Assembly: GCA_024137785.1 (NCBI GenBank)
Contig: JAHRHZ010000056.1
Coordinates: 15,314,409-15,378,408, forward strand
Source of the DNA: Ginglymostoma cirratum
Lineage: Eukaryota
Direction: 5' to 3'
DNA: 64,000 bases
This document shows, one piece after another, positions 3,800 through 46,825 of the stretch (the stretch's first letter is position 1; the number at the start of each line of letters is the position of its first letter). The translations under genes and the position numbers were made by a program. The notes under the pieces are model-generated. The model was given only the letters and a program-made list of their open reading frames with translations, did no database searches and had not been told where the DNA came from.

Positions 3800-4017
3800 T
3801 TCGTCAGTGTGGAGCTGGAGGAACGCAGCAAGTAAGGCAGCATCAGAGGAGCAGGAAAGTCGACGTTTCGGGTCGAAACCCTTCATCAGGAAGGAAGAAG
3901 GGTCCTGACCCGAAACGTCAATTCTTCCGCTCCTCTGATGCTGCCTGACCTGCTGTGTTCCTCCAGCTCCACATTGTATTGACTGTGACTCCAGCATTCG
4001 CAGTTCTTGTTATCTCC
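3800..4017. mobile_element. Palindromic Penelope-derived non-autonomous repeat with hammerhead core
   Basis: Inverted arms of about 85 bp centred near 3890 (gtggagctggaggaac.../...gttcctccagctccac); the minus strand reads CTGATGA-agggtttcgaccc-GAAA-CGTC at 3889-3862. Confidence 0.8.
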
Positions 4018-8024: not shown

Positions 8025-8236
8025 TACAAACACAGGGAATGCTGGAGAAACTCAGCAGGTTTGACAGAAGCTGTGGAGAGAAACAGTTGATGTTTCAAGT
8101 TGAATATGACTCTTTTTCAGTTCTAAAGATGAGTCACACCAGACGCAAAATGTTAACTCTGATTCTCACTCCACAGATGCTGCCAGACCTGTTGAGTTTC
8201 TCTAGCATTCTCTGCGCTGGTTTTAGATTTCCATCA
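8025..8236. mobile_element. Palindromic Penelope-derived repeat (older subfamily, degenerate hammerheads)
   Basis: Inverted arms gctggagaaactcagcagg/cctgttgagtttctctagc around a centre near 8110. Confidence 0.75.
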
Positions 8237-16519: not shown

Positions 16520-17190
16520 CCGGGTCCACCCCTTCCCGGGGGCCGGGCTCTTACCTGCAGATGCCTATTTAGCACAGCCGCTTCCGGAGTAATTAATCCC
16601 GGACGGTGCAGTTCCGCAGGCCGGCAGCGCCCCCGGCCGCAGGGCCGTCCTGCATTTCGCTCCGTGCCCGGACTGAGTGATTTCCGAATCGGCGCCGGGC
16701 GCGGCCCCTCCTCCTCCTGCTGTGACCCGCGGGCTCCGGGCGCAGGCGCACTTCAAGCCCGAGCTGCCATTTTGCAGAACGACGGCGACGGCTCCCCCTC
16801 CCCCCAAACGCCGAGCCGTCACGGTGCTGCTGGGGGCGTTGCGATGGCGGCTACCGCCAATTCCCCGCCCTCTGCTGTATTGTGTTCTCCTGTCCTCTCC
16901 AGGGCCGGGCCTAGCGGGCTCCTACCCTTTCCTCGCCCGGCTCCGCCGCCGCTGGCCCTTGGCCTCTTCTCGCTCCGGCCCCAGGCCGCGTGCAGCCAAA
17001 CCTGAGAACGGAAGCGCGTCGCCCCTAACCTACCCCAACAGGGCCGGAGATTGACAGCCGCATTCACCAATGGCAGGCAGTCTTCGCCGCCGCCGGGCCA
17101 ATCGCCTGGAGAGAGGGGCGGTGCTATCGGTCTCCCAGGGAGAAGGGGGAAGAGAGACCGTCACAAGTTTGGTTGCACGACTGTAGAGCG
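16520..17190 (-). promoter_or_regulatory. CpG island promoter of ATXN7L3
   Basis: Very high GC/CpG density; CCAAT boxes at 16857, 17067 and 17098 (last two 31 bp apart, NF-Y-like spacing); GC boxes near 16863 and 17114. Confidence 0.85.
16555..16800 (-). other. ATXN7L3: Probable non-coding exon 1 of ATXN7L3 (5' end uncertain)
   Basis: Strong donor CAG|gtaaga at 16555/16554 at the edge of the CpG island; YY1-like AAAATGGCAGC near 16770. Confidence 0.65.
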
Positions 17191-17273
17191 AATCCTCAGG
17201 CAGGCTACAGAGAGAGAGCCAGAGCCCCCTGTACCTCACTGCTCCCTGAGACAGGCTGCAGAGAGAGAGAGAG

Positions 17274-17673
17274 NNNNNNNNNNNNNNNNNNNNNNNNNNN
17301 NNNNNNNNNNNNNNNNNNNNNNNNNNNNNNNNNNNNNNNNNNNNNNNNNNNNNNNNNNNNNNNNNNNNNNNNNNNNNNNNNNNNNNNNNNNNNNNNNNNN
17401 NNNNNNNNNNNNNNNNNNNNNNNNNNNNNNNNNNNNNNNNNNNNNNNNNNNNNNNNNNNNNNNNNNNNNNNNNNNNNNNNNNNNNNNNNNNNNNNNNNNN
17501 NNNNNNNNNNNNNNNNNNNNNNNNNNNNNNNNNNNNNNNNNNNNNNNNNNNNNNNNNNNNNNNNNNNNNNNNNNNNNNNNNNNNNNNNNNNNNNNNNNNN
17601 NNNNNNNNNNNNNNNNNNNNNNNNNNNNNNNNNNNNNNNNNNNNNNNNNNNNNNNNNNNNNNNNNNNNNNNNN
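17274..17673. other. Assembly gap (400 N)
   Basis: Run of Ns flanked by (GA)n on the left and a palindromic repeat on the right. Confidence 0.99.
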
Positions 17674-17842
17674 CCAAGCAGCATCATAGGAGCAGGAAGG
17701 CTTGACGTTTCGGGCCTAGACCCTTCATCAGAAAAAAGGGTCTAGGGACCCTTCTGATGAAGGGTCTAGGCCCGAAACGTCAAGTTTTCCTGCTCCTATG
17801 ATGCTGCTTGACCTGCTGTGTTCATCCAGCCCCATGCTTGTT
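17674..17842. mobile_element. Young palindromic Penelope-derived repeat with two intact hammerhead cores
   Basis: CTGATGA-agggtctaggccc-GAAA-CGTC on + (17754-17781) and the identical sequence on - (17731-17704). Confidence 0.85.
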
Positions 17843-19519
17843 AGCTAGGGGAGCAGTGCTGCTTTCAGGGCAGCCTGTAGAGAGAAAGCCCTCACTGCCC
17901 CAGGGCATGCTGCAGTGAGACTCTTCACAGGGCTATGGGAGTAATGCTGCTTCAAGGGCAGACTGCAGAGAGACGCCCACAAACTCTGCACCCAGTTCCC
18001 TGGGATCCCAAACAGCCCTCAGTGGACCAAGAGAGTTCTTTCCAAAAACAAGCTGCACTTGCAACATAGGCATCTCCTCCCAAATGGGAATGTCTGTCAC
18101 TTGCTGCATAGTGGCCACTCTTCCCAGACGGGGACAGGAGCAATTGAAACATTTCACTGCAATCGATGCAAGTTGAATCTGCAACGAGAAATGTCCCAAT
18201 TCCAGCCCCCACCCTAGCGCTGCATCTTGCAGGTATTTAAAATGCGCGTATTTGTCGCGAATGCACTTATATCCACGTGAAAGACAAAACACAAGTATTA
18301 CATCCGCCGTGTAATACAACGCTGGTAACTTATCCCTCGAATTCCGAAGGACGTGGCATGGCTAGTTTCGGCGTAAGAGATCCAACACAGCGTTCACATC
18401 GGAACAAAGAAAAAGCGTTGCAGACCCCGCAAAAGTAAGATTTCCTGCGTTCTCCTAACTCCAAGCAAACAATCACAATTCCAGGTTTCATTTGCGTTTT
18501 CTTAGGACTATTCACGCCTACATTCTTCCAGAAAGTAAAATACTCCAGTCGTTTTAGTACGTATTATGCAGTTCTTGTAAATAATACTAACAACTATCCA
18601 CAAATAACTTCGCTATTTGATGCATTTGAAATTACTTGACTGCTGCGGCTAATATGCAACCTTAGGAAGTGCCTGTACAAAGTATTTTATTCAAATACAA
18701 TGAATGTAATATTGTGAACAAATGTTCCAAATCCGAGGGAAGCACGGGATAGAGTAAAGCTATGATTTTTTTGCTACATTTCTTACTGCCAGAAAGCACA
18801 ACATTTGGCACAATCTGTCTGAGGTTAGCAATTCACTAGAACACTTGTTGAGCAGAATAGTTGAAGAGAAGTCAAGACATCCGTGCATTGTTTTAAACAC
18901 ACTAGATCTTTGAAAGGAGCCAAGCCCGATTTCACTCGTCATCCGCAATGGGCCCTTGCTGCAAGGAGCATAATGGGCCAAGGTCGATTTGTGTTGAACT
19001 GGAGCCTGGATAACTTTTTTGAGTAACTCCGCTAAAAGCTGAAAATCATCATCATTCATATGAATGACCATGTTATACTCCAGTGTGATTATCGAGCAAA
19101 TAAAAAGCGAGTTTCTGATCACAAATACAGCATTTTCACCGACCTCTATGAATGGTATCCGTTGCTTTGCAGACTTGTACTTTGAGCTTGATACAAAGCA
19201 ATTAATTATAACTTCTAGGGCCTTACTATGTAAACCACAAAGCTGCACACAGATCAATTTGAGACTGGTCTCATACCTTGCCTTTATCTTCGCTAACAGT
19301 TTAGTGTTTATAATTACTAAAGTGAACTTTACTTTTTAACAGTACTAGTCTGTAAAGAATGGGCTCAACTGAAAGACCTTAAAGAGACAGCACCTGGCTG
19401 CAGACCTGTTATCCCGAGCAATAAAGAAGGCAAACCGAAACTAATACTAAAAGTGACTGTGATGTGAAGATACTAAGCTTTTGTCTGCTAGGTTTCAGAT
19501 TGCGTGAATTTGGCTGGAA

Positions 19520-26109: not shown

Positions 26110-26410
26110 CAGCAAGAACTGCAGATGCTGGAAGTCAGAGTTGATACAGCATGGAGCTGAAGGAACCCAGCAGGTCAGGCAGTATGAGGAGGAGGAGGAA
26201 GAAAGTCGATATTTCAGGTCAGCACTCTTCACTAGTCCTGAAGAAGAGTGTTGACTTGAAATGTTGACTTTCCTGCTCCTCGGATATTGCCTGACCTGCT
26301 GGGTTCCTCCAACTCCACACTATCGAAATGCTGGAGATCACAGCAGGTCAGGCGGCATCCATGGACAGACAGTAAGCTAACATTTTGGGTCTACAGGACT
26401 CTTCAGAGTG
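26110..26410. mobile_element. Palindromic Penelope-derived repeat plus an adjacent half copy
   Basis: Inverted arms around about 26233; plus strand agtc-CTGAAGA-agagtgttgactt-GAAA-TGTT-gact. Confidence 0.8.
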
Positions 26411-31644: not shown

Positions 31645-34114
31645 CTATGAAAATAATGTTCATAATTAAATATTGCTCTTGTCCAATTCAAATTTAAAAG
31701 CAACTACAATAACAAGGCTGTCATTAGCTCAGACCATGTAATCCCCATTAACAGACAGTTCCTTTTCAAGCAATATGCATTGGAGCTGACTTAAATGTTG
31801 GATTATAAATCAGCAAGCAGTTACAAGGTGGCAGGAAAAAAAAAACTATTGTCTGCCTGTCAAAGAAAAACAAAACTTTTCAGCTGTATAGAAAAGATTA
31901 GAACACGGAAAACTTGCTGAAGTCCACAAGAATTAGGATAGAACAGGATGATAAAAAAATGTGGACTTAAGGGCAAAATGATTAAAAGCGCAGCTTGGAT
32001 ACTGAGTTTGTGATGATGTGTGAACAAGATCATCACAGGGATCAGTGATTAGATTTCAAATCTGTAAAATGCAGATACCAACTGTAAGCTCAACACTCTT
32101 ACAGATGGCACGAAACAGTGAGATAAGGATGGACACCATAGTTAATACTTCAAACCGTTCTGAATCTTTCTGCCAAACCTTAACAGCTGAACAGCAAACA
32201 TTTGTCACCACTGCACTTTGAAATATTGTATATTTAAAGAATGAAAACAGCACAGATAAACTTTTCAAAATTAATGACTGCGGTGGATACGTTTCTTTCA
32301 ATATGGAAAAAAGGCTGAATGTTTAACTAGAACCACAAGAGGTTATGTCAGGCTTGATGATACACCGACCATCTCATATTAGAATGTGGTTCAATATTGG
32401 TCACTGAAAGTCAGGACACTTACGTACTTTGGAGAATTCTTATAGGAAAGATCACCCAAATGAGAAAAACCCTTAGAAGGTGCATTAGGAGGAGTTAGTG
32501 AGGGACAGCCTCAGGTGAGGCACAGCATGGCATGGCAATAGCAATAGCAAAGACAAGATGAATGCTATTGGAGCTCTGAAGAAACATTCCAGACTCTGAA
32601 ACATTCACTGTTTTTCTTGCCCCATGTAGGGGTGATCTGTACCTTGCCATGTAAACTGCCTGTACCTGTTTACAAGATGGCAGACAGAAGCTAAGCAAAA
32701 CTAAGCAGCCTGCTCAGTGAAATACAATGGTAACTTTGAACAGAACTGCTGGAAGGTCAGTAAAAGAATGCTGTATGTTCCCATCCGAGACAGTTCTGAT
32801 AAAAGGATGCCTTAGGACAAATAAATGACCAATTCCAGCTTTATTAATGAAAGGGTGATTGTCCCAGGGAATGAATGTCAGGTGCTAGATTAGGTCCTCA
32901 AGCAGCTGCAAGGATAACAACTAAATTTTTTTCATAGTAAATAATTGCCTCTTTGAAGCTACCAGCAATATTAAATAGCTTCTAGCTAAAAATACTCTAA
33001 TCAAAGAAGTTGGTTTCAATACATAACCAGTATGTAGCACAAGCCTTAAAAAAAAACAAACATTTAAGCTTAGATGTAAAGATTAACTATCCTCAGAAGG
33101 TACCTTCTCTTGTGCCCTAAACAAGATAGATCGATCACAATCCATAAATTACAAAATGCTGACAGTAGTAGTTATATGATGTTACACATTATAATTAACT
33201 TTATAACAGGAGTTAGTTTTAACTAATTGCTATAAAGTTAACTAACTTTTTATTTTTACATTACGTAATTGGGACAGTGGGGAAAAAAGGAGTAACTGAA
33301 TGTGGTAAGAGAGAGCACCAAAACACAATGGGCTATAGAATTCATGCTGTCCTTACAGATAAACAAGCCTGAGAAAGACCCAAAGGAGTACAGCCATTAA
33401 ACTTTCAGAATGCGAATGAGTAGGATGCATGGGAAGATCCCAAGGCCTAGCGATTACAATGTCTAGCTAATACCATAAGATCATGGGAACCTGGGGCTGT
33501 CAATGGAAATGCCCATCACTGATTAGGGTCCCACAGGATCGGGTGTTTGAATTAAGGGGAAGGACTATAACTAAATTGTATTTGATTACTGTAACAAAAT
33601 GTATAAAAATGCTGTATTTCTTTGTAAAAGCAGAGGGTATGTCATTGATCTATCTTCTGAAGTCAGATTCGGGGGATTTGCCGGGGGGGGGGGTGGTGGT
33701 GGAAAGAGAGAGGTTGGAGATGCTTTGGCCCTCGCCCGGCATAAACCTGCTTCTGCTTGAATAAATATCTTCCACTTGCCTGAATCCTGCCTGCCTCCCG
33801 AGTCGGAAAAAAACGCTCCCACACCCCAGATGCTGCCAGACCTGTTCAGTTTTTCCAGCAGTATTTTTATTTTCAATTCAGTATGACATTGGGTTAATAA
33901 GTGGTAAAAGATGATGACCAAAGGCTGGCCAAATGGAGATAACTAACGCATGCCATCAGGTCAATGACTGAATGTAGAAGCCAGTTCACCTCAAATCTAC
34001 TCAGTCAGAAGCCCAGTCACAGACTGGTGAAAGAAAAATCCTCAACTGGTAATGGATCCAAACTCTCCAACTATAACTGCCTCCTACTTTCAGTCAATAG
34101 TGCAGGCTACCTAC

Positions 34115-46659: not shown

Positions 46660-46825
46660 TAAAAACAAAATACTGAGTACGTTGGAAACCTGAAACAGAT
46701 ACAGATACAGAAAATGCTGGAGAAACACAGCAGGTCTGGCAACATATCTGGAAACGGAAAAGTTAAAAAAAAAAGTTCCACTTTATGGACACTGCCAGGA
46801 ATGCAGAGTTTCTCTAGCATTTATT
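46660..46825. mobile_element. Degenerate palindromic Penelope-derived repeat (centre deleted)
   Basis: aaatgctggagaaacacagcaggtctggc ... gagtttctctagcattt. Confidence 0.65.

Follow-up and report, generated by a model that had tools for sequence, protein, structure and literature searches.

Back-to-back hammerhead motifs in a shark genome: a probable head-to-head insertion of a Penelope-like retroelement end, with likely twin priming and predicted inactivity of both ribozymes

In this study, we relate a pair of back-to-back hammerhead motifs in the shark Ginglymostoma cirratum to the retroelement from which it derives. The pair lies in the window, by which we mean the whole stretch of 64,000 nucleotides that was analysed. 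We consider it likely to be a single 5′-truncated insertion in which the hammerhead-bearing end of an autonomous Penelope-like retroelement (PLE) is present twice, head to head, formed probably by twin priming and carrying two ribozymes that are predicted to be inactive in place. That the feature is an inverted PLE stub is, in our assessment, close to certain.

Two identical 28-nt hammerhead cores lie on opposite strands, at 17754-17781 (plus) and 17731-17704 (minus), as the initial annotation had described; none would be expected by shuffling. They point away from one another and are embedded in inverted repeat arms of 59 nt (17675-17733 and 17752-17810) that are 97% complementary. Throughout the arms, positions are numbered with the C of CUGAUGA as +1. 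The features in and next to the insertion are as follows.

16555..17145, minus strand: 5′ exon in a CpG island, belonging to the Sgf11-domain gene, whose assembled transcripts extend no further than 17145
17274..17673, no strand: assembly gap of 400 N, hiding the remaining left arm and the left target duplication
17674..17737, minus strand: left arm, a reversed PLE end, visible from about -3/-6 to +58 and cut by the gap
17704..17731, minus strand: first minimal hammerhead core, lacking helix III; cleavage predicted 3′ of 17704 (minus strand)
17732..17753, no strand: junction of 22 nt, in which an A-run is joined by two snippets of the core, one sense (+7..+17) and one antisense (+13..+7)
17752..17843, plus strand: right arm, a PLE end from about -2 to +90, with the family's short 3′ end and without the 30-35-nt tail
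17754..17781, plus strand: second minimal hammerhead core; cleavage predicted 3′ of 17781

The sense and antisense snippets of the junction form a perfect 7-bp hairpin with a 4-nt loop at 17736-17753. This hairpin had been noticed before and taken for a third partial copy of stem II, a reading that we replace with that of a templated junction insert, of a type seen at many back-to-back junctions. The junction also contributes the first base, C, of 'CUU' in the proposed helix I, where family copies read UUU. The two arms mismatch at +32, +33 and +58; two of these are subfamily-diagnostic sites, and +58 adjoins the gap. To the right, the arm is bounded at 17843, past which reads from other copies diverge. 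To the left, position 17674, from which the feature had been annotated, is the edge of the gap, and the arm breaks off there at +58. Because the left arm runs into the 400 N, its end and its target duplication are invisible, and for the window locus the pairing of a long with a short end and the duplication rest on other loci. From the long-plus-short rule, the left arm is predicted to be the long-tail arm, extending to about +125.

Given this position, one might ask whether mis-assembly at the gap edge created the central junction. It adjoins the gap, no contig piece spans it among the pieces listed (a minority of all pieces), and at other loci (L007/L008) the assembler duplicates such palindromes across gaps. 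We nevertheless judge an artefact very improbable, as the make-up of the junction matches that of gap-free loci with clean target duplications and the window arms differ at three sites. In the assembly, some palindromic insertions indeed appear once on each side of a 400-N gap, in opposing orientations (L007/L008, G000:C1:427124-428135 and others), and copy counts are inflated as a result. Degenerate repeat units of 35-53 nt occur on either side of gap and insertion (window 17194-17269 and 17864-17976), which points to a minisatellite-like tract as the insertion site and to a true gap that may be far below 400. Elsewhere in the window, introns hold two back-to-back hammerhead insertions that are older, more diverged and from related families (3810-4017, with an apparently short left end and a long right end, and 26148-26317), and decayed single tail fragments of related families are found at 8169-8206, 26330-26405, 33829-33859 and 46716-46764.

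The gene neighbourhood agrees with that first described: by the domains of their exons, the neighbours are a multi-HMG-box gene, which we take to be UBTF, and the Sgf11-domain gene, presumably ATXN7L3, both on the minus strand. RNA coverage on either side of the insertion is too low, and apparently unstranded, to give a direction of transcription. The locus as such is ordinary: the insertion, a few hundred bases from a housekeeping promoter on its upstream side, is probably neutral.

At the level of sequence, the motif conforms to the minimal type-I hammerhead that had been proposed, with a conserved core and stem II, a palindromic 15.2-16.2 and no helix III. Among 131 arms chosen regardless of the core, variation amounts to 1.5% in non-CpG core columns, 7.6% in the flanks and 17% at N7 and loop II, such that the preferential conservation of core over flanks foreseen in the initial annotation is borne out; the other core columns that vary are CpG sites. 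Changes between subfamilies affect N7, loop II and one G-U/A-U pair; they spare the catalytic bases and leave stem II intact. The low core variation and the spared catalytic bases together argue that the motif is maintained in source elements. A hammerhead model search, likewise suggested at the outset, gave no such support, with Rfam returning no hammerhead family and only four matches, all short of the gathering score and two of them to miRNA hairpin models.

Folding of the transcripts favours a hairpin over the ribozymes, at -131.9 kcal/mol vs -76.4 with the hammerhead forced for the plus strand and -128.7 kcal/mol vs -74.5 for the minus strand. In either strand's transcript the pairing probability of stem II and helix I is 0.0 against the hairpin, and the predicted fold of a transcript beginning in the junction buries the hammerhead too. 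Two same-sense monomers fold more favourably as a non-catalytic duplex (-33.8) than with helix III formed (-13.3, a value that leaves out helix I), and energy by itself therefore gives no prediction of dimer activity. On these models, mutual pairing in the hairpin would keep the window ribozymes inactive, and by analogy their cleavage would need a same-sense partner, helix III being absent. No clear build-up of copy ends is apparent at the cut site: 5′ ends fall at +9..+29 in 2/81 arms and at +30..+44 in 12/81, with no sharp peak, and in a second listing, scored by eye (96 distinct of 100 rows listed, four assembly duplicates having been dropped), none ends at +29 and 16 end at +30..+36. The idea of intact ribozymes acting on passing RNA therefore finds little room here: with no helix III and a hairpin lock, action on UBTF read-through or ATXN7L3 promoter-antisense RNA appears unlikely, and we think it highly probable that the feature has no function at the window locus.

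The parent of the arms is a PLE with about 100,000 end-copies. Genome-wide, the exact core occurs 22,605 times, a looser core pattern 92,235 times and a 33-nt piece of the downstream tail in 101,033 exact copies. Long copies carry reverse transcriptase (RT) and GIY-YIG frames upstream of the same core, which supports the Penelope origin proposed initially. In the near-complete copy L209, two hammerhead ends lie 3,546 bp apart and enclose an 827-aa RT frame and a 315-aa GIY-YIG frame, with one frameshift in the coding part and an 11-bp target duplication; matches to GIY-YIG and, at E 1.5e-6 and narrowly below the curated cut-off, to RVT_1 were obtained in both L209 and L031. The order of an RT followed by a C-terminal GIY-YIG endonuclease is that of an EN+ PLE, and the L209 translations contain the DKG motif and, within the GIY-YIG domain, the CCHH finger, following the definitions in the available part of PMC8557442. 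Pseudo-LTRs with a hammerhead (two copies in L209) and a partial tandem (L040) are also present, and inverted 5′-truncated copies with a tail on one arm make up 42/50 and 31/33 pairs in two sets, a rule shown at the window locus by the short right arm alone since the left end is hidden by the gap. The linker ahead of the endonuclease reads CX4CxxC in L209, within the CX2-5CxxC pattern that the accessible text of PMC8557442 gives for Neptune/Nematis, and by its motifs (DKG, CCHH, CX4CxxC) the parent would be classed with this type. With RT and GIY-YIG, the parent is autonomous, and the window feature is thus a stub of such an element. In L209 (minus strand), the first Met of the long RT frame lies 166 nt past the hammerhead start, after short upstream frames, and the N-terminal part of the frame contains an Ala/Thr/Pro-rich repeat. 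Also common in the same genome is another hammerhead family, in which the stem II/loop is longer and the cut position is a U (L040:5173, L224).

In the initial annotation, the feature had been placed in a MITE-like or retrozyme-like non-autonomous family moving as a palindromic unit, with ribozymes that could process UBTF read-through or promoter-antisense RNA. Similar short palindromes do exist in thousands (3,841 by a wider pattern, and 1,099 places with back-to-back cores at most 30 nt apart for one allele class, some assembly duplicates being included in both counts), some short forms of the junction are seen more than once (in as many as 4 of the 50 loci listed, by eye), and flank RNA coverage is low. 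Multiplicity holds for palindromes in general but fails for the window junction itself, whose 25-mer occurs once in 4.36 Gb. About 39 distinct junction forms, composed of short templated snippets, are seen by eye among the 50 loci listed, arm lengths range from tens of nt to >1,700, and the many copies of one fixed internal structure that mark a MITE are lacking. So, too, are equal terminal inverted repeats with a fixed short duplication: target duplications do accompany 34 of 50 sampled pairs, but they vary from 7 to 17 bp and the ends are unequal. Tandem same-sense units are absent as well, whereas a non-LTR retrozyme has at least two consecutive same-sense hammerhead units by the criterion in the portion of bioRxiv 10.64898/2026.07.22.740005 available to us, and the ribozymes are buried inside a hairpin. 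The unique junction, varying junction forms, unequal ends and variable duplications rule out a MITE family, and with an autonomous PLE as parent we regard the MITE-like or retrozyme-like reading as extremely improbable overall and as already contradicted for the window locus.

The insertions sampled elsewhere in the genome follow a common set of rules. For 5′ ends, 103 tail-anchored arms on one contig were used, of which 81 could be scored after 22 gap-cut arms had been dropped; 25 start at -7..-1, 16 at +1..+8, 2 at +9..+29, 12 at +30..+44 and 26 further upstream (five ends at -247 reflect an indel in the reference copy and are artefactual). Hence 41/81 begin within -7..+8, a tendency to stop at the 5′ edge of the ribozyme. 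The 3′ ends form two classes, a short one (53/102, mostly +81 to +100, where +81 is a subfamily alignment stop) and one at about +125 (49/102). Both outer ends were available in 50 of the 53 inverted pairs of a first set, which comprised 42 long+short, 4 long+long, 3 short+short and 1 long+shorter pairs (P ~2e-7 for 42/49 at even odds). A second set of 34 loci, two of them common to the first and 20 picked for discordance at +58, gave 31 long+short and 2 short+short among 33 resolved. Target duplications of at least 7 bp flank 34/50 pairs of the first set, vs 8/600 shuffled pairs (mostly 13-17 bp; none was found in the other 16), and 27/33 of the second; duplications of single arms (39/207) contain false self-matches and were excluded from use. 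Alleles are largely shared between arms: at +13, pairs were C/C in 811 cases, T/T in 1,194 and mixed in 75 of 2,080, vs ~1,005 mixed expected if independent, and at +58 the arms of 210/3,841 palindromes were discordant, these pair and palindrome counts containing some assembly duplicates across gaps. Across diagnostic sites in the 53 sampled pairs, 35/187 comparisons were discordant, above the genome-wide counts. Scored by eye in 42 long+short pairs, the arm with the greater 5′ extent was the short-end one in 20 and the long-end one in 18, and 4 were ties; neither arm is thus a simple copy of its partner. As arms end short or long about equally often and the non-inverted L209 ends short, both ends are likely priming sites.

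To account for the window insertion, we lean slightly towards twin priming on one RNA. The endonuclease would cut the target as a staggered double-strand break, leaving two free 3′ ends, each of which would prime reverse transcription at one of two internal sites ~30-35 nt apart. Both sites would lie in the 5′ hammerhead copy of one RNA, and the second reaction would displace the first cDNA. Both cDNAs would then run off the RNA 5′ end, 3-4 nt ahead of the core, which would account for the 5′ stops near the ribozyme edge, and host end-joining would fuse the two cDNA ends, inserting templated snippets. At -4 there is an initiator-like sequence. Priming at two sites on one RNA would explain the long+short pairing, the target duplications and the shared alleles together. 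Some observations sit less well with it. The window arms mismatch at +32, +33 and +58, including two diagnostic sites, which is a misfit with a single RNA template; a minority of pairs may stem from two templates or later conversion. The 5′ copy of L209 begins at -27, not -4, and no RNA start at the element was seen in the RNA data examined, so that an RNA 5′ end at -4 is something we infer.

The mechanism for which these results must also be weighed is fold-back or self-priming, put forward for head-to-head PLE palindromes in the part of PMC3846280 available to us, in which a single cDNA snaps back at its end and copies itself, endonuclease resolution sets the short end, and later deletions or repair reshape the centre. 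It predicts shared alleles, as well as perfectly symmetric centres, which exist. Yet about half of all arms end short while short+short pairs number only 3/50 and 2/33, and the short-end arm often has 5′ sequence missing from the long-end arm (for example -807 vs -155 in L011); in a single case, L248, the arm from which a telomere-type tract continues is the short-end one of a long+short pair. Fold-back would need extra steps to reach the long+short pairing and the 5′ reach, steps that later central deletions could provide: reciprocal arms could arise by central deletion of a fold-back palindrome, and shared alleles by conversion between arms. On balance, we find it rather unlikely. Less probable still is twin priming on two separate RNAs, held by protein or a ribozyme dimer and chosen independently. 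The difference of the window arms at two diagnostic sites, the ~4-5% of discordant pairs and the predicted dimer of the anole protein (PMC11167929, in the portion available) speak for it, but independent templates would yield ~1,005 mixed pairs at +13, where 75 were found, and a 1:2:1 mix of end classes, where 42/50 were mixed. This allele sharing (75/2,080 discordant) rules out an independent RNA per arm for most pairs; two RNAs from the same source copy are possible.

Extended to the family, twin priming would make the mini-palindromes a record of how PLE inverted ends form, by a 13-17-nt staggered cut, priming by both strands at two fixed sites on one RNA starting 3-4 nt before the hammerhead, host joining and sometimes the addition of telomere-type repeats, a broader claim to which we give about even weight. 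TTAGGG tracts of two to three units were noted exactly at the central junction in 4 of ~85 inverted insertions (L031:3155, L229:1542, L245:1561 and L248:1575, the last continuing from the short-end arm of its long+short pair), three of these loci belonging to the 20 picked for discordant arms, and within an arm at L032:2307. The other 12 TTAGGG places in ~1 Mb of loci lie elsewhere than junctions, and the reference element has 0. Tracts of this kind suggest that free ends at the centre were extended by a telomerase-like addition.

Published PLE insertions already include head-to-head cases that have a tail on one side and a target duplication (PMC3846280 and PMC8557442, as far as their available text goes), and the latter, in the same text, terms the origin of PLE tandem and inverted structures undefined. 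In the literature searched, we found no statement of twin priming for PLE inversions; subscription papers (e.g. Arkhipova 2006) and supplements lay outside its scope and may have one. What is new here is the measured rule set, namely the 5′ stop at the ribozyme edge, the long+short ends and the shared haplotype. If true, twin priming on one RNA would supplant the published self-priming proposal and account for the one-sided tail. With thousands of events, the family is a test bed in which stop point, long+short pairing, haplotype and duplication length separate twin priming from fold-back, and the rule set yields direct predictions for the existing in vitro (anole) system.

In L1 twin priming, both target strands prime on the RNA and an inversion results. 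The mechanism favoured here shares this both-strand priming, but where L1 uses different RNA stretches, the same stretch would be copied twice. Among PLEs, the closest parallels are the EN+ insertions with an inverted pLTR, one-sided tail and target duplication described for Pen2a_Av and others in the available part of PMC3846280, for which that of PMC8557442 gives a general scheme. As there, the shark insertions have head-to-head arms, a palindromic junction, a 30-40-bp tail on one arm only, a target duplication and assembly gaps at the insertion sites. Unlike Pen2a_Av, however, the shark arms are cut to ~90-130 nt with no ORF left, the duplications are mostly 13-17 bp rather than the 8-10 bp given for rotifer cases, and the genome holds thousands, which can be counted. 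The promoter context of Penelope is treated in PMC2377424.

The hammerhead resembles those of PMC4209133, in its accessible text, in lacking helix III and in having a palindromic 15.2-16.2, an extra base between 9 and 10.1 and a G10.1-C11.1 pair. That text reports PLE minimal hammerheads to be inactive as monomers and to cleave weakly as same-sense dimers, and dual motifs on opposite strands 100-700 bp apart in Schistosoma; the shark motif, known from sequence alone, differs in its 22-nt spacer and 3-bp helix I. Similarly, the available part of PMC11167929 shows the anole PLE (Poseidon, PAc) to cut and extend both strands in vitro, starting at two internal sites downstream of the hammerhead that bound the tail. 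The shark element would agree with the anole one in two internal starts that define the tail, and both show no clear sign of ends at the ribozyme cut site, but the shark parent has the CX4CxxC linker (Neptune/Nematis type in the available PMC8557442 text), and the ATG within its hammerhead opens only 14 codons, whereas the PAc ORF starts at stem II. Finally, the shark feature is PLE-derived, hammerhead-bearing and non-coding like the non-LTR retrozymes of bioRxiv 10.64898/2026.07.22.740005, but whereas these, in the part available, are same-sense tandems of at least two consecutive hammerheads, the shark feature is an inverted pair.
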